IMG/VR virus record: IMGVR_UViG_3300048913_000051
Location: 1 to 46,915 of that record
Reading direction: 5' to 3' (one strand)
Origin: a virus
DNA: 46,915 nucleotides
Positions within the stretch are counted from its first letter, which is position 1, and each line of letters begins with the position of its first letter. Below the pieces are notes generated by a model, which did not search any database, was not told the origin of the DNA, and worked only from the letters and a program-made list of their open reading frames with translations. A program made the translations under genes and the position numbers. Shown one piece after another: positions 35,388-45,092 of this stretch.

Positions 35388-35968
35388 TCTGCCTTCCTCT
35401 TGAGTTCGCGGGTCTTGGCGCGGTATTCGGCGGTGATGGCTTTCAATTCGTCGATGGTGTAGCGCTTTGGCTCATGCGGGCCTTCCAGCCAATCGACCTT
35501 GTCCTGACCGATGCGCTTTATCAGCTCTAACCGGTAAGGCCCGAGGTTGCCGGACTTGGCCATGTTGCAGTTGCGGTTGCATTGTAAATGTACGTTCAAG
35601 GGCTCAAATCGAAGCTCTGGATGACCGCCAGCTGACCTGAAATGGCCGGCTGCGTATTGAACATCTGCCGTGGTGCCGCATGAGACGCAAGGCAATCCGG
35701 CGTCCCTGGCACGCACCCAAGCATTGAACGCGGCCTGCGCCTCGCGCATGTACTGCCCTTTGGTCTTTACGCGCTCCTTGGCCGCTCTCAGGCTCTTGCG
35801 GTCCTCCTGCTGAATCGCCTTTCTCGCCTTGTCCTGATTTTTCGGCGCATCAATGATCGCGCAGGCCGGACTGCAAACAGCCTGACCCATGCGAGCTGGG
35901 ACGAATAAGGTTCTGCATGATTCGACCCGGCAGCGCTTCGGGCGCGGCGCCTTGGCTTGCAGGGTCAT
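35384..35968 (-). CDS. ninG: NinG/Rap-like recombination endonuclease
   Basis: N-terminal C-x4-C...C-x3-C, then GLPCVSCG....AGH....G....RF...N.H.QC..CN as in lambda NinG. Confidence 0.85.
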   Translation of the reverse strand: MTLQAKAPRPKRCRVESCRTLFVPARMGQAVCSPACAIIDAPKNQDKARKAIQQEDRKSLRAAKERVKTKGQYMREAQAAFNAWVRARDAGLPCVSCGTTADVQYAAGHFRSAGGHPELRFEPLNVHLQCNRNCNMAKSGNLGPYRLELIKRIGQDKVDWLEGPHEPKRYTIDELKAITAEYRAKTRELKRKAE

Positions 35969-36489
35969 GCAGTTTCACCCTTCGTATTTTTTGATTGACG
36001 CCCATGATTTTCATGGTAGCCATTCAATGAGTCTGCATTTTTCCTGGCCAAAACGGCATCTTCAATATTTTCAAAGTCGCCCAGGTGCTTTCTACCAGCA
36101 TCAGTCGAAATTTGAGCTCTCCATTTTGATACTTGCTTGCACCAGGAAACCCCTATATGTCCGCTTGTGTTGCTAGATTTTTTTGATGAATTCCTAGTAT
36201 TAATTTTTTGGCTAACAACCCGAAGATTTTCAATCCTGTTATTCAGTGGGTTCCCATCTATATGGTCGATATATCCATCAGGGTATTCTCCATATGCCAT
36301 CATCCAAATAATCCTATGAACCTGATGTGTTTTCTTATTCAGGAATGTATGTCGATACCCACTGTGATGGACTGATCCGACCTCAGTTCCAGCTTTTACT
36401 TTTGAGCGATTTATCTTCCAGAAAAGACGACCGGCTTCCGCATCGAATCGGAATGCCTCATTAGCCTCATTGAAGGTTATTACCGTCAT
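35965..36489 (-). CDS. HNH homing endonuclease with AP2 DNA-binding domain
   Basis: IDHIDGNPLNNRIENLR (HNH) and GHIGVSWCKQVSKWRAQIS...GDFENIEDAVLARKNA (AP2). Visibly AT-rich relative to the flanks. Confidence 0.9.
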   Translation of the reverse strand: MTVITFNEANEAFRFDAEAGRLFWKINRSKVKAGTEVGSVHHSGYRHTFLNKKTHQVHRIIWMMAYGEYPDGYIDHIDGNPLNNRIENLRVVSQKINTRNSSKKSSNTSGHIGVSWCKQVSKWRAQISTDAGRKHLGDFENIEDAVLARKNADSLNGYHENHGRQSKNTKGETA

Positions 36490-37073: not shown

Positions 37074-37245
37074 GATTCAGCGCCTCGCTAAGGAACCCCT
37101 CGATGAATCCTCCGGCCACGGTTATGCCAAGCCACGCAAGGACGCTCATCGGCGTGAACTCCATTTGATGCGCAACGACCAAGGCTGTAATCATGGTCAG
37201 ATATCCGAAATAGCTGATGGTCGGAGCAAATAGAAAATGTCTCAT
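37066..37245 (-). CDS. Small membrane protein (59 aa), below the ORF-track cutoff
   Basis: Hand translation MRHFLFAPTISYFGYLTMITALVVAHQMEFTPMSVLAWLGITVAGGFIEGFLSEALNHG. ATGA overlap with the upstream stop. Confidence 0.45.
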   Translation of the reverse strand: MRHFLFAPTISYFGYLTMITALVVAHQMEFTPMSVLAWLGITVAGGFIEGFLSEALNHG

Positions 37246-37955
37246 GCCGACACTTCAAGGGCCTTTTCAGGTTCTATTTTCTCGGCGGCAAGGATAGATC
37301 TTGCTGACTTTTCCGCCGCACTCATCAGAAAAGATATCCCCTCGTCAGGGTCGTCAGTGATCGTGATGTAGGCATCGGCTATTTCCTCTGTGCTCATCCC
37401 GTATAGAGCTAGCGCAGAAAACAATTGGAACTTACTTGGGCCGCCATCTAACGGCGCGAAAAGATCACCGCCATACATCCATCCACCATACATGGTGCTC
37501 ATAACAGACGCATGAGACATGGATGCCGACCATTTTTCACAGTCGCTTACTTGACGGCCTAAAGTCTCACTTTTCAGAATATGAGAAATGGCCGACTTGA
37601 ATCTTTCATTTTCAGCCTTGATGATATTTTTGATTGGTTCCGGCGTTTCTCCGCAAAACTCTGAATCAATTATTTCAACAATCTTCTCCATGTCTACACC
37701 CTTAAACCATTCTCCGGAATACCTTTCTGAGCACGATTGGGCGCAGTAATCTATCAGCCTTTTTTCTGCGCTTACCGTATCAAACATAACCCCTGACACA
37801 GCAGAATCAATTAGTGTTGCGCCTCGTATTTTTGAAGAGCCAACATGGACCGTTATTCGATCTGACGCTACTCTTCCTCTTCCTACTTTGACCAAGCCAT
37901 CAGAAAACAATGCCGCATAAACCTGGCCTCTTTTGAAAGATTTTGCGCTGCGCAT
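37242..37955 (-). CDS. T5orf172/MUG113 (GIY-YIG-related) domain protein
   Basis: VYAALFSDGLVKVGRG...R....H and GEWF blocks. AT-rich gene. ATG at 37955. Confidence 0.6.
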   Translation of the reverse strand: MRSAKSFKRGQVYAALFSDGLVKVGRGRVASDRITVHVGSSKIRGATLIDSAVSGVMFDTVSAEKRLIDYCAQSCSERYSGEWFKGVDMEKIVEIIDSEFCGETPEPIKNIIKAENERFKSAISHILKSETLGRQVSDCEKWSASMSHASVMSTMYGGWMYGGDLFAPLDGGPSKFQLFSALALYGMSTEEIADAYITITDDPDEGISFLMSAAEKSARSILAAEKIEPEKALEVSA

Positions 37956-37968
37956 TTTCTCAACCCAC

Positions 37969-38062
37969 AAAAAAAGGCTTAGGCTTTGCGGTGGTCGTAA
38001 TCTTGTTGGATCTGGATCGAGGGGGAAGCTCAATCCAACAAGAACACCGCAAACCTAAACCT
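37969..38062 (-). terminator. Very long hairpin (about 30 bp with bulge, 21-nt loop) plus U7: strong intrinsic terminator/attenuator
   Basis: Arms 38033-38062 and 37975-38011. The mismatches become G-U pairs only on the minus-strand RNA. The A-run at 37969-37975 gives the U-tract. Confidence 0.7.
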
Positions 38063-40984: not shown

Positions 40985-41782
40985 TTAGTCGAAATTCAAA
41001 ATTGAGAATGCTGCTGCTGCCACTCTCGGAACTTGTCCATTGCCAAGGGCTTTAATTCGGTCCAACCGGAAGGCCACCCCATCAGCCATTCGACCCACTC
41101 CGGGTTCAGCGGGCCACCCACCACCTGAGGCAGGCACTCCCCGGATTTGCTGCCAGTCCTTTCCATTCGACTCTTGCCTGGGTGCCGGTAATCTCGGCGC
41201 ACTGGTGTCGGCCATAACTTCACCGCACTGTTCAAGCCCCACCCTGCGCTCTTGCTGGAGCCTGGCTGATTGTGGTTCCCGTGTACGGTTATCGTTGGCC
41301 ACAACCCAGCATCGATCGCGCTGATGGGGCGCTCCAGTGTCGGATGCTGATACAATGCACCACTGCGCGTCATACCCCATTTCGGCAAGATCACCGAGGA
41401 CCACGGCAAGTCCTCTTCCCACAAGCAGAGGTGAGTTTTCCACGAAGACGAGCCTAGGTCGTACCTCGCCGATGATTCTCGCCATTTCACTCCAGAGCCC
41501 AGATCTAGCGCCATCGATGCCGACCCCATTCCCGGCAGCTGATATGTCCTGACACGGGAATCCGCCCGAAACCACGTCAACAAGGCCTCGCCATGGTCTT
41601 CCGTCAAAACTGCACACGTCAGACCAAATTGGGAAAGTTTCGAGGGCTCCATCATTTTGTCGTTGCGCCAGAACTTGTGCTGCGTAGGCATCACGCTCAA
41701 CGGCGCAGATTGTCCGCCATCCGAGCAGGTGGCCGCCGAGAATTCCTCCACCAGCGCCCGCGAAAAGAGCCAACTCATTCAT
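40985..41782 (-). CDS. Short DNA (cytosine-5) methyltransferase (frame A, 265 aa)
   Basis: Motif I LFAGAGGG, IV GGFPCQDIS, VI FVENSP, VIII QRDRCWVVA, X LGNGQVP. Confidence 0.85.
   Translation of the reverse strand: MNELALFAGAGGGILGGHLLGWRTICAVERDAYAAQVLAQRQNDGALETFPIWSDVCSFDGRPWRGLVDVVSGGFPCQDISAAGNGVGIDGARSGLWSEMARIIGEVRPRLVFVENSPLLVGRGLAVVLGDLAEMGYDAQWCIVSASDTGAPHQRDRCWVVANDNRTREPQSARLQQERRVGLEQCGEVMADTSAPRLPAPRQESNGKDWQQIRGVPASGGGWPAEPGVGRMADGVAFRLDRIKALGNGQVPRVAAAAFSILNFD
40996..41778 (-). CDS. Co-extensive +1-frame ORF (frame B, 260 aa) inside the short MTase gene; candidate overprinted gene
   Basis: Its ATG lies 4 nt after the frame-A ATG and shares the SD. Open for 783 nt. Contains LWPT/LWPTP and LNPEWVEWLMGWPSGWT (motif-IX-like). 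Confidence 0.5.
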   Translation of the reverse strand: MSWLFSRALVEEFSAATCSDGGQSAPLSVMPTQHKFWRNDKMMEPSKLSQFGLTCAVLTEDHGEALLTWFRADSRVRTYQLPGMGSASMALDLGSGVKWRESSARYDLGSSSWKTHLCLWEEDLPWSSVILPKWGMTRSGALYQHPTLERPISAIDAGLWPTITVHGNHNQPGSSKSAGWGLNSAVKLWPTPVRRDYRHPGKSRMERTGSKSGECLPQVVGGPLNPEWVEWLMGWPSGWTELKPLAMDKFREWQQQHSQF

Positions 41783-41804
41783 ATCCCCTCACTTAAAAAT
41801 TCAA

Positions 41805-42617
41805 TCAGCGCTTAACGCCGAGCTTGGCCAGCATTTCCGCCCGTAGCTCGGCCGGCGTTTTCTTGTCCAATCCCTGATCCTTGATCCGCTGCTTGATCAG
41901 GGATTCATTCGCCCTTTCTGATTCCTCAATGTCACTCAGTGCCTTTTCATGCGCCAGAAGCGCCTGTGATGCCACTAGCTGCTCTCCGCGCTGCAACTTG
42001 GTAGTCAGCTCAGCATATCGCTTCATAAAACGATTCTGGATCGTATCAGCCTTCGGCGTGCCGGTTCGGATGCTGAACCAATCAGTAAGTTTCCCAGCCT
42101 CCTGAACAATCGGGTGCGAGAACTTCCAGGTTGCCGGGTTGCTGCTGGCCTCTACGGCTTCCCGCCAGGCGATGATGGGATCAGGTATCCCAAGATCAGA
42201 TCCGCCTTCGAAGCACATTGCGCGGAACTCAGGAGCCGATGGCGGCCATGCTTCACCAGACAGCGCGCAAGCCTTGGCCCCCGCGGCGATCTGGTACTTG
42301 TCCACGCCCGACAGCGCCTTGCCCCAAACGCCGCTCGCATCCTCAAGCCCGTGAACGCTGGTCCACTTATGGCCATACAGGTCGGTCATCAGCGACCACA
42401 ATTTTTCCATCAAGATCGTTGATGCGGGAGAACTCGCCTTCGAAGTCTCTTCCGTAGTCATCCACTCCGGACGCGAATAGTTCGGCTGAGCCCTGAGAGC
42501 CTTGTCCCGCTTCTCTGTCCCGCTCAGCTTGGCGCTCGGCGTTACGTTGGCGGACCTGTTCAGAGAGGCTAGGCTTGCCCGTGCTACCTGCTCCGGCGTT
42601 CGGTTGTCCTGCGACAT
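41805..42617 (-). CDS. Lambda P-like replication protein (helicase loader); start uncertain
   Basis: LYGHKWTS, WPPSAPEFRAMC and the C-terminal AEMLAKLGVKR resemble lambda P. GAGGTAAGG SD before the ATG at 42617. Alternative starts at 42461 and 42410. Confidence 0.7.
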   Translation of the reverse strand: MSQDNRTPEQVARASLASLNRSANVTPSAKLSGTEKRDKALRAQPNYSRPEWMTTEETSKASSPASTILMEKLWSLMTDLYGHKWTSVHGLEDASGVWGKALSGVDKYQIAAGAKACALSGEAWPPSAPEFRAMCFEGGSDLGIPDPIIAWREAVEASSNPATWKFSHPIVQEAGKLTDWFSIRTGTPKADTIQNRFMKRYAELTTKLQRGEQLVASQALLAHEKALSDIEESERANESLIKQRIKDQGLDKKTPAELRAEMLAKLGVKR

Positions 42618-43275
42618 GCGGCCTTACCTCGTCTTCCCATCGTTCTGCGTTAAGCCATGTTGCGGCGTTTGGTATGAACTGGCCGTCGTCCCTGACCCAC
42701 CCCTGACTGACCCTGTGATTGGCGAGCCCCTGCATGATCTCGGGGTGCTTATAAGGTTCTATTTTTGACCAGGCCTTGATAGCGTCTTTTTTGCTGACCT
42801 TTTTCGGGTAGAGCTTCCAAAACGAATCGAACGACTCATCCGCTACAGCCTTGGCTGAGCGAGAAGGTTTTTTAATTGGTTCTTGGTTAGTGGTTAGTGG
42901 TTCTTGGTTAAGGTTCTGTTTAGGTTCTCCGTGGGAACCATCTGGGTTTTCTTTGGGTTTAACAGGCCTCCCGCCACGCTTCCCGTTCTCTCTGTTTGCG
43001 ACTGCTTTTGAGTGGTATTTCTCAATCTCATCATCGCAGCGCTTGTGGTGATAGCCGTCCTCTTCAAGACTAAAAAACTCACCCAAAATCACCGAAGTGG
43101 CTTCTTCGTGGCCACCCAATCGCAACCTACGAATAACCGACTTGGTTTCAGTTGGGATGGGCAATTCGCTCTCGTAGTAGTGATCAAGAAGCCGGCGATA
43201 AACCCCTTCTTCCTCTACTGATAGATGGGAGGTATCCCTTGACCAGTCCTTAATGTTGAACTTGTAGTAGTGCAT
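42367..43275 (-). CDS. DUF1376 (YdaU)-type replication initiator
   Basis: N-terminus MHYYKFNIKDWSRDTSHLSVEEEGVYRRLLDHYY. Iterons lie in the linker region. Confidence 0.85.
   Translation of the reverse strand: MHYYKFNIKDWSRDTSHLSVEEEGVYRRLLDHYYESELPIPTETKSVIRRLRLGGHEEATSVILGEFFSLEEDGYHHKRCDDEIEKYHSKAVANRENGKRGGRPVKPKENPDGSHGEPKQNLNQEPLTTNQEPIKKPSRSAKAVADESFDSFWKLYPKKVSKKDAIKAWSKIEPYKHPEIMQGLANHRVSQGWVRDDGQFIPNAATWLNAERWEDEVRPHVAGQPNAGAGSTGKPSLSEQVRQRNAERQAERDREAGQGSQGSAELFASGVDDYGRDFEGEFSRINDLDGKIVVADDRPVWP
42876..42930. repeat. Iteron-like direct repeats (GGTTCTTGGTTA x2, GGTTCT x4) next to an AT-rich patch; candidate ori
   Basis: GGTTCT at 42878, 42899, 42912 and 42923. The first pair is 21 bp apart. 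GGTTTTTTAATTGG lies adjacent. Confidence 0.5.
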
Positions 43276-43664: not shown

Positions 43665-45092
43665 TCAGTCGTTTAAGCCAAGATGGTCAATAATTCGAAT
43701 CGCAACCCATCGAGCAACTGGGACCGCCCACGAATTACCGATCGCCCTATAACGTGGCCCGTCCGGGCATTCGATGGCGGCCTTGTTGCGCCAAGGGATC
43801 TGCGTGTAGTCGTCGGGGAATCCCTGAAGGCGCTCGCACTCGGTTGGAGTCAAGCGGCGCACTGCCGACCCGAGTTGAACGGCCTGCACCTCGGCGCGTG
43901 CTTCCAGCGTGTAGGCGTGATCGGCCTGTACGCCGACGCCATCCGGTCCGCTCGCTGGATTTGTTCTAAGTGCGCCCGCTTGGATTGCGTGGGTCACAAT
44001 CGGCTGGCCTCTCCCGGTGCCGTCTTCACTACCGTCGAATCCCTCAGCCTTCAGCGTGTGTGTGATGTCGCCCGTGACGCACACAGCAAGCTGTCCGCCT
44101 GCGTTCGCGTGGCTGCTTTTGTGGCCCATGGCGCGAAGTGTTGGTGCGATAGGCCCAACATCGGCGCCGTGGTCCTTGCAGGAGAAGGCCAGCACTGCGT
44201 TCTCTTGTCCGTTGTTTCTTCCAAGAGCGAAGGCAACGGTCTTGCTTGTTCCATGGTCTTGCGTGCCATGAACAACCAGAAGACCGGATTCGGCGTCCTG
44301 CTGAGTCGCGCTGCCAGCGGCCTTGCCGTTGGCATTTAGCATTCCGGCAATCAGGTGTCCTGCTTGGGCCTGGTTGTCGTCTGCGCCGCATGTTCCAACG
44401 CCGTTTGCAGGGAGTGCGGCAACTGCCTTGATCTCGCCTCGGCGCGGCGCAGAATCCCTGCGCACGCCATCGCGCTCAAAAAGTACCGATGCGGGATCGA
44501 ACCCTTCTCGAGCACTTGCCACAACGAACACACGGCGGCGGCGTTGGGCCAGGCCGAAATATTGGGCGTCCAAGACCCGCCACGCGATTGTTCTTTTGGG
44601 TCCATACACACAACCAGCGTCCTGCCATTTTTTCCCTGAAGGCTGCAATTCGCAGTCTTCCCCAGCAAGCGCCCCAAGAAAGCATCCGAAGGCGTTGTCT
44701 TTATCGGAGAGGACACCAGGGACATTTTCCCAAATGACGATGCTAGGGGCTTCGTTTCGTTTTTCTCGAACATAGTCAATTGCATCAGCGAGCCCCACAA
44801 ATTTAATAGTCAATTCGCCACGAGGATCGCTAAGACCTCCACGCATCCCTGCAACACTAAATGCCTGGCATGGCGTGCCGCCTGTAAGCACGTCAGGCGC
44901 CGAAACGTCCCCAGAAAGCACGGATCGCGCAATGGCCGTCATATCTCCAAGGTTGGGAGTTTTAGGGTAATGATGGGCAAGCACAGCGCTTGGAAACGGC
45001 TCGATCTCGGCAAGCCAATCAGCTTTCCAGCCTAGCGGCTCCCAGGCCACGCTAGCCGCTTCGATCCCGCTACATACAGAACCGAACCTCAT
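43665..45092 (-). CDS. DNA (cytosine-5) methyltransferase (475 aa)
   Basis: Motif I FGSVCSGIE, IV GGTPCQAFS, VI VIWENVPGV, VIII QRRRRVFVV, IX RRLTPTECERLQGFPDDYT, X IGNSWAVPV. Confidence 0.9.
   Translation of the reverse strand: MRFGSVCSGIEAASVAWEPLGWKADWLAEIEPFPSAVLAHHYPKTPNLGDMTAIARSVLSGDVSAPDVLTGGTPCQAFSVAGMRGGLSDPRGELTIKFVGLADAIDYVREKRNEAPSIVIWENVPGVLSDKDNAFGCFLGALAGEDCELQPSGKKWQDAGCVYGPKRTIAWRVLDAQYFGLAQRRRRVFVVASAREGFDPASVLFERDGVRRDSAPRRGEIKAVAALPANGVGTCGADDNQAQAGHLIAGMLNANGKAAGSATQQDAESGLLVVHGTQDHGTSKTVAFALGRNNGQENAVLAFSCKDHGADVGPIAPTLRAMGHKSSHANAGGQLAVCVTGDITHTLKAEGFDGSEDGTGRGQPIVTHAIQAGALRTNPASGPDGVGVQADHAYTLEARAEVQAVQLGSAVRRLTPTECERLQGFPDDYTQIPWRNKAAIECPDGPRYRAIGNSWAVPVARWVAIRIIDHLGLND

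Follow-up and report, generated by a model that had tools for sequence, protein, structure and literature searches.

A phage C5-methyltransferase locus open in two co-extensive frames, a probable two-chain enzyme of the M.EcoHK31I type

Introduction

M.EcoHK31I of E. coli HK31 (YGGCCR) is a natural heterodimeric cytosine-C5 methyltransferase (C5-MTase) whose two polypeptides are read from the same DNA in two frames, and its gene 'has an unusual architecture' (Lee, Kam & Shaw 1995 NAR 23:103, as cited in PMC2836561 and PMC3404938). As recounted in these two papers, the alpha chain holds motifs I-VIII and X, the beta chain holds motif IX, and both are required; removing the beta start codons by alpha-silent changes left no methylation, which beta supplied in trans restored, and the N-terminal part of beta is largely dispensable, its first 42 residues in vitro (PMC2836561, PMC3404938). 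Here we analyze a viral contig of 46,915 nucleotides (IMG/VR record IMGVR_UViG_3300048913_000051; the whole stretch is called the window below), in which a C5-MTase gene at 40985-41782 is open in two frames, the catalytic frame A and, in +1 register, frame B. As judged from sequence, this locus is probably a two-chain C5-MTase of the M.EcoHK31I type, translated from twin starts.

The likeness to M.EcoHK31I is one of described architecture: an alpha chain with motifs I-VIII and X, a beta chain in another frame of the alpha gene, and motif IX in beta, with the dispensable beta N-terminus recalling the weakly constrained N-terminal part of frame B. The differences are considerable. Beta of M.EcoHK31I lies 'entirely within' alpha, whereas frame B starts 4 nt after the frame A ATG behind the same Shine-Dalgarno sequence, is co-extensive with frame A, and ends after it in many relatives; the literature puts the recognition region in alpha, whereas here a WPTP region and the codon periodicity place it in frame B; and M.EcoHK31I belongs to a restriction-modification system, whereas this gene sits in a phage replication module, beside genes for an O-like initiator and for a P-like helicase loader, where a scan of five neighbors revealed no nuclease, and is an orphan phage methyltransferase. 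Complete co-extension with a shared Shine-Dalgarno, a recognition region apparently in frame B, the orphan phage context, and the size and taxonomic breadth of the family are what is new relative to M.EcoHK31I.

M.AquI is a second natural two-chain C5-MTase, split in the variable region so that beta carries motifs IX and X (Karreman & de Waard 1990, as cited in PMC3404938), and separately made large- and small-domain fragments of M.BspRI, M.BsuRI, M.HhaI and M.SssI assemble into active enzyme (PMC3404938). M.EcoHK31I, M.AquI and fragment complementation thus establish the two-chain mechanism biochemically for C5-MTases. The fragments derive from artificial splits of single-frame genes, without overlapping coding, and the assembly step is the same as the one assumed here. 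The alpha and beta genes of M.AquI overlap only slightly and motif X is in its beta chain, whereas at the present locus the overlap is total and motif X is in the alpha frame. In classical overprinted virus genes, the new frame usually encodes an accessory protein unrelated to the first; these genes share with this locus a long same-strand overlap in which one frame dominates each stretch, but here the two frames appear to hold complementary domains of one ancestral enzyme. Beyond M.EcoHK31I and M.AquI, we found no earlier description of the phage family in the literature.

Results

Layout of the locus

The following features, in window coordinates, define the locus.

40985-41782, minus strand: frame A open reading frame (ORF), 265 aa, ATG at 41782-41780, stop ending at 40985; proposed alpha chain (large catalytic domain, linker, motif X)
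40996-41778, minus strand: frame B ORF, 260 aa, +1 register, ATG at 41778-41776, stop ending at 40996; proposed beta chain (overprinted N-terminal part, recognition region, motif IX)
41785-41790, minus strand: Shine-Dalgarno GAGGGG, common to both start codons
41294-41782, minus strand: frame A codons 1-163 with motifs I, IV, VI and VIII; frame A selected, from codon-position entropy and identity
41299-41484, minus strand: frame B codons 99-160, overprinted on A motifs VI-VIII, with selection of their own (KW.ES..YD..SSSWKT..LPWSSV.LPKWGMTR.G..ERPI), from frozen four-fold sites and shuffle z
41059-41307, minus strand: frame B codons 158-240; frame B selected; putative GLWPT / LWPTP recognition region and motif IX LNPEWVEWLMGWPSGWT (41059-41109)
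41060-41293, minus strand: frame A codons 164-241, overprinted frame A linker, open but without conservation as protein
41006-41059, minus strand: motif X in frame A, RIKALGNGQVPRVAAAAF; frame A selected again, with A-type periodicity

Some 780 nt are thus open end to end in two frames of the same strand. In the start region (GAGGGGatATGaATGag), GAGGGG stands 2 nt from the frame A ATG and 6 nt from the frame B ATG. A preliminary description of this DNA, made from its letters alone, had given the same coordinates and lengths, with the twin ATGs 4 nt apart behind one Shine-Dalgarno, and every motif it quoted is present: LFAGAGGG (I), GGFPCQDIS (IV), FVENSP (VI, an ENS variant), QRDRCWVVA (VIII) and LGNGQVP (X) in frame A, and LWPT, LWPTP and GPLNPEWVEWLMGWPSGWT in frame B. 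It was also right that SSSWKT in frame B is the +1 reading of the frame A motif VI codons and that frame A lacks motif IX, a block resembling which sits in frame B. It erred in taking this block as the end of frame B, since 20 residues (ELKPLAMDKFREWQQQHSQF) follow.

Existing annotation holds half of the locus at a time. On the source contig, frame B is called (P0001, 'hypothetical protein') and frame A is not; the frame A protein is on record solely from another contig, of 1,953 bp.

Both frames are held open

Could a second frame of this length be open by chance? The longest same-strand off-frame run in any other ORF of at least 200 aa in the window is 154 codons (31% of its gene), in keeping with the figure of about 150 aa given earlier, against 260 codons (98%) here, and the +2 frame of the locus contains 18 stops. 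Of 5000 synonymous shuffles of the frame A codons, the check that the preliminary description had proposed, 0.5% left the +1 frame open (mean 3.4 stops); shuffling frame B never left frame A open (mean 8.1 stops). Eleven relatives gave an open +1 frame in 0-2.6% of A-shuffles per locus, apart from one at 11.6%, with 2-7 stops predicted across loci. The B-shuffles of twelve loci left frame A open in 0 of 5000 trials in eleven and in 0.16% in one, with 5-14 stops expected in frame A over the whole co-extensive region rather than over A codons 164-241 alone. The open second frame is not due to chance.

Homologous loci were examined in two sets, one of 84 loci, comprising the window, the records of three phages and 80 IMG/VR loci retrieved with frame A as seed, and one of 80 loci seeded with frame B in bacterial genomes, 79 of which were scored. 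In the first set, 65 of 84 loci combine an ATGnATG start with both frames longer than 230 aa. The other 19 were considered as counter-examples and rejected, as on re-inspection they proved to be GTG, TTG or TTA variants: most have GTG or TTG as the frame A start, five have TTA, which is no start codon, and the B ATG is retained. Only three of the 84 are broken. The three phage records in this set are isolates, of Salmonella, Pseudomonas and Acinetobacter; they match the gene at ~80% DNA identity over its 5' half, and have both frames open and the same twin start. In the second set, 68 of 79 loci have an uninterrupted -1 frame ORF that spans the motif IX block and contains motifs I, IV and X, and most loci have an NTGAATG twin start; the G+C content (GC) ranges from 0.46 to 0.68 and the +2 frame is open for ~7 codons. 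These loci come from Pseudomonas, Acinetobacter, Citrobacter, Ralstonia, Synechococcus, Verrucomicrobiota, Bacteroidota, Planctomycetota, Saccharibacteria, Campylobacterota and others. Altogether both frames are kept open in ~150 independent loci, and their openness is under selection.

The start region is conserved as well. Among 75 distinct upstream regions, the Shine-Dalgarno-like motif mostly ends 4-5 nt before the A start, that is, 8-9 nt before the B start. Codon 2 of frame A (Asn) is AAT at the twin start, keeping the B ATG, against 375 AAC to 301 AAT elsewhere, although the count of 84 in 84 is partly circular, the search pattern having required AAT. The TTA variants are L021, L027, L039, L043 and L052 (Acinetobacter-type viral contigs, around position 1501), and also L110 and L123; the B ATG and the Shine-Dalgarno are intact in them, and frame A would need an upstream start. 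In two further loci (L078, 1364-2401; L068, 1352-2371), frame B reaches 46-50 codons upstream of A motif I and again opens with MSWLFSR or MSWLISR, and this displaced or duplicated N-terminus hints that the B N-terminus matters in its own right.

The selected frame switches twice

Which frame is selected where can be read from the variability of each codon position (entropy across 78 distinct loci) and from mean pairwise identity. Over codons 11-160, the third position of A, which is the second of B, is the most variable (~1.0 bit vs 0.1-0.6), and identity is 0.77 for A and 0.55 for B. In the block before the C-terminus (LNPEWVEWLMGWPIGWT in B), it is instead the third position of B (0.85-0.92 vs 0.26-0.56 bits; identity A 0.69, B 0.88), and A codons 164-241 lack A-type periodicity. 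In the last block (LKALGNGQVP in A), the third position of A is again the most variable (0.79 vs 0.43 and 0.22; identity A 0.77, B 0.62). The selected frame thus switches from A (motifs I-VIII) to B (WPTP region and motif IX) and back to A (motif X), and the segments follow one another in the same colinear order as in an ordinary C5-MTase.

Within the stretch dominated by frame A, frame B is partly free to vary and partly selected (codons ~99-160), so that its overprinted half is not entirely a matter of mere tolerance. Four-fold sites of frame A between motifs IV and VI are saturated (1.7-1.9 bits), and divergence is therefore sufficient for a selection test. Against this background, some four-fold sites are frozen: GGG in 78 of 78 loci, CGA in 72 of 72 and AGA in 52 of 54 AGN codons, with GCT, CTT and GTT nearly invariant. 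Codons at these sites are unable to create a stop in B, and the constraint must therefore be the B amino acid, namely the Gly in KWGM, the Asp in RYD and Glu. The rare Arg codons of frame A are explained in the same way, CGA and AGA being frozen where B needs Asp or Glu. The preliminary description had remarked on their rarity, correctly, while undercounting AGA/AGG as nine: of the 24 Arg codons of frame A, 10 are AGA/AGG and 6 are CGA, compared with 19% AGR and 39% CGC in a rough collection of ORFs from elsewhere in the window. Over A codons 99-163, B identity is also higher than synonymous shuffling predicts, with z 6-7 against close relatives (3-8 overall, two distant phyla included), 4.1 against Gordonia phage Upyo and 2.8 against cyanophage S-H1.

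Frame A, the catalytic chain

Searched separately, as had been suggested, the two translations behave very differently. Frame A matches PF00145 (1.4e-31, 110.5 bits against a cutoff of 22) over residues 4-172, which correspond to profile positions 4-169 of 324; TIGR00675 (79.8 bits) falls under its cutoff of 100.65. In the PDB, frame A matches M.HhaI (1e-12) over residues 4-164, and phrog_363 covers residues 1-261, its whole length. Foldseek aligns the frame A model to M.HaeIII and M.HhaI over only ~170 columns. AlphaFold2 predicts residues 1-170 as folded, 174-248 as disordered, with a predicted local distance difference test (pLDDT) score of ~35, and 250-263 as a helix with pLDDT ~72, and the disorder coincides with the stretch where B has its WPTP region and motif IX. 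Frame A thus contains C5-MTase motifs I, IV, VI and VIII and, as ALGNGQVPRVAAAAF in the confident helix, a motif X that aligns to that of DRM methyltransferases; by periodicity, identity and pLDDT, it has no recognition region or motif IX between VIII and X. With motifs I-VIII and X in A and the WPTP region and motif IX in B, frame A is likely the catalytic large domain with a disordered linker.

Frame B, a candidate small domain

Frame B has no Pfam or NCBIfam hit, yet it matches PHROG families, one of them labelled 'DNA methyltransferase', and has 4496 called homologues, all 'hypothetical'. A joined profile of motif IX from B and motif X from A has six C5-MTases (plant DRM) as its six best PDB hits, aligned from IX to X, with a gap of 9 residues where the two frames meet (expectation value, E, 0.08). 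In these alignments LNPEWVEWLMGWPSGWT lies in register with LEPDEVEMLLGFPKNHT (DRM) and LTPTECERLQGFPDDYT, although the statistics are weak and the motif is short (E 0.08 and 0.012). Likewise, hhalign places the motif IX block of frame B on RRLTPTECERLQGFPDDYT of the second methyltransferase of the window at a probability of 3.6%, reproducing an in-register alignment that had been made by eye. Frame B appears to supply the recognition region together with motif IX, i.e., the small domain; neither this recognition region nor the M.EcoHK31I precedent figures in the preliminary description.

A search with the C-terminal 104 residues of B returns 13,103 clusters (50% identity), of which 2,931 reach E <= 1e-10. 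Among the 150 best B-module representatives, we found no clean single-frame enzyme with motifs I-VIII, the WPTP region and motif IX. PF00145 occurs in five of the 150 (P0266, P0302, P0318, P0331 and P0390), where the A N-terminus is fused to frame B irregularly, upstream of motif IV, within it, or past motif VI; none has all catalytic motifs, and they may reflect frameshift mutation, faulty assembly or decay.

The layout in isolate phages and bacterial chromosomes

Isolate phages show several versions of the same plan. In Gordonia phage Upyo (L085, MT521997, 1093-2398), gp54 contains motifs I-VIII and then a stop, and is almost wholly overlapped by a 409-aa +1 ORF in which LPTP repeats and motifs IX and X share a single frame; only the last 233 aa of this ORF are annotated in GenBank, as gp53. 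A second chain with both IX and X, as in M.AquI, is therefore found in Upyo, where motifs I-VIII lie in frame A and the remainder (recognition region, IX and X) in the other frame, but not at the window locus. Paenibacillus phage Tadhana (MG727700), a Paenibacillus larvae phage, has the same +1 layout, with motifs I-VIII and X in A and WPTP repeats and LNPDWVECLMGFPIGWT in B; both gp54 and gp55 are annotated 'DNA-cytosine methyltransferase', and its genome paper names both genes but says nothing of their overlap (PMC6070908). Synechococcus phage S-H1 and Mycobacterium phage Rhynn share this layout. In this nested form (Tadhana, S-H1 and Rhynn), B starts 30-70 codons inside A, ~67 in Tadhana, whereas at the window locus the frames are co-extensive. 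The Salmonella-phage version of the gene occurs in 4 of 5,426 complete E. coli genomes (H31-H34), where the NCBI pipeline annotates frame A only.

Discussion

How might such a locus work? We propose that a single Shine-Dalgarno recruits ribosomes that may start either at the ATG at 41782, giving A, or at the ATG at 41778, giving B. The A chain would consist of motifs I-VIII, an unstructured linker of ~78 residues, no more than the functional part of B read out of frame, and a motif X helix that would pack onto the Rossmann fold. The B chain would begin with the out-of-frame reading of the A catalytic motifs and continue into a WPTP-type target-recognition region and motif IX, which together would form the small domain. 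The two chains would then associate into an active enzyme, as in M.EcoHK31I alpha/beta and artificially split C5-MTases. We infer that B is translated from its own ATG, that the chains associate and that activity depends on B.

The arrangement may have originated in three steps. A frameshift between motif VIII and the recognition region would have split a single-chain enzyme, fragment complementation would have rescued it, and a second indel between motifs IX and X would have brought motif X back to frame A. By its motif order, Gordonia phage Upyo looks like the state before this last move, with motif X still in B.

More tentatively, the co-extensive twin-start form may be an ancient dual-coding gene that persists across many phyla, in which B residues ~99-160 form a new structured element co-selected with A, possibly an alpha-docking surface, and in which the 4-nt spacing of the starts sets the alpha:beta ratio. 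If so, the locus would be a natural system for studying two proteins that share every codon and, to our knowledge, among the longest conserved same-strand overlaps in prokaryotic viruses.

Several results weigh against assigning the small domain to frame B and against selection throughout its length. Pfam and NCBIfam searches with B, the Upyo B-frame ORF, A-B-A chimeras and an IX-X peptide gave no C-terminal hit at E <= 10, which means that these family libraries are blind to the B module. AlphaFold2 models of B alone, built from 62 close homologues, are poor (mean pLDDT 46.8; WPTP/IX part 31-55), and residues ~99-160 are the sole part near pLDDT 72; with the fold so poor, the identity of B as the small domain depends on short motif similarity (E = 0.08; 3.6%). 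Selection on the overprinted middle of B is absent in the comparison with Tadhana (z -0.9) and marginal in that with Rhynn. Finally, the B 'homologues', numbering in the thousands, were predicted by gene callers rather than observed as proteins.

Frame B might instead be translated for another role, such as regulation or anti-defense, with A sufficient by itself, perhaps as a low-specificity methyltransferase. Such a role would fit the want of a Pfam or NCBIfam hit and of a confident fold for B, the conservation in their own right of B residues 1-15 and 99-160, which have no counterpart in ordinary C5-MTases, and the routine annotation of A as a complete 'DNA cytosine methyltransferase'. We nevertheless consider it unlikely: the best-conserved part of B is in register with C5-MTase motif IX and directly precedes A motif X, A lacks both a recognition region and a motif IX, its residues 174-248 are predicted to be disordered and are unselected in its own frame, and M.EcoHK31I alpha alone is inactive (PMC2836561). 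The preliminary description had left the choice between a dual-coding gene and a methyltransferase expressed by frame switching. The former is supported by the openness of ~150 loci, by selection on frame B and by the disorder of A where B has its WPTP region and motif IX. The latter, a single chain made by a programmed +1 shift from A to B after motif VIII and a -1 shift back after motif IX, would account for the colinearity of A (I-VIII), B (recognition region, IX) and A (X) with an ordinary C5-MTase, but is very unlikely. It would need neither a B ATG behind the Shine-Dalgarno, nor 157 open upstream B codons, nor an open A middle, all of which are kept in ~150 loci; A stays open for 100 codons past the switch, without early closure of the zero frame; and inspection by eye, not a formal scan, finds no stop codon and no conserved slippery motif at either junction. 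Moreover, the end of A motif VIII (CWVVAN) and GLWPT of B are read from the same nucleotides, and so cannot both be in one chain. We know of no precedent for two such shifts in one gene, and a two-chain solution is already proven for M.EcoHK31I.

It is also highly improbable that only A is a gene and that B is a by-product of composition or ancestry, a relic of two compensating indels. A GC of 58% does favor long off-frame ORFs, and the second codon position of B is the most variable over codons 11-160, so that most of its N-terminal half is not evolving as a normal protein. But the second frame stays open where GC is 0.46-0.50 (Acinetobacter-type and Dissulfurispiraceae loci) and in different phyla, shuffles predict 2-7 stops, the motif IX block has B periodicity with 88% B against 69% A identity, rare codons are frozen for B residues, and AAT at A codon 2 keeps the B ATG; the selection tests contradict this explanation. 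Sequencing or assembly frameshifts, or a decaying pseudogene, could be invoked for L007, L067, L061 and the five hybrid called proteins, which are broken or frame-fused, but as an account of the locus they have next to no probability, given the same layout in isolate phage genomes, complete bacterial chromosomes and metagenomes of unrelated projects.

A two-chain enzyme thus best accounts for the locus. The 'unusual architecture' described for a single E. coli enzyme seems to be the standard plan in a very large group of C5-MTases from phages and prophages, enzymes that are important for evading restriction and that bear on epigenomic signals in metagenomes. Of the two frames, gene callers retain just one: B on the source contig, A in the NCBI pipeline. 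A model for the B module would clear a large block of 'hypothetical' phage proteins and would flag methyltransferases whose specificity is not predictable from the annotated frame alone. With a selected frame that changes twice, the locus is also a data-rich case suited to testing methods for detecting overlapping genes.

Other features of the window

A second C5-MTase lies at 43665-45092 on the minus strand. It is an ordinary single-frame enzyme of 475 aa (phrog_116), with PCQAFS near 44873 and RRLTPTECERLQGFPDDYT near 43829, and its +1 frame is open for only 152 codons; with the single-frame and the two-frame gene, the phage carries two C5-MTases of different architecture. The P-like helicase loader (41805-42617, minus strand, phrog_109) and a primosomal/replication-initiation protein (42367-43275, minus strand, phrog_9327/270) overlap by ~250 nt as listed, and the helicase loader probably starts at an internal start codon. 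Two ORFs on the minus strand, at 35965-36489 and 37242-38033, stand out by a low GC (0.41 and 0.46; background 0.55-0.60) and may be recently acquired cargo (moron) genes.

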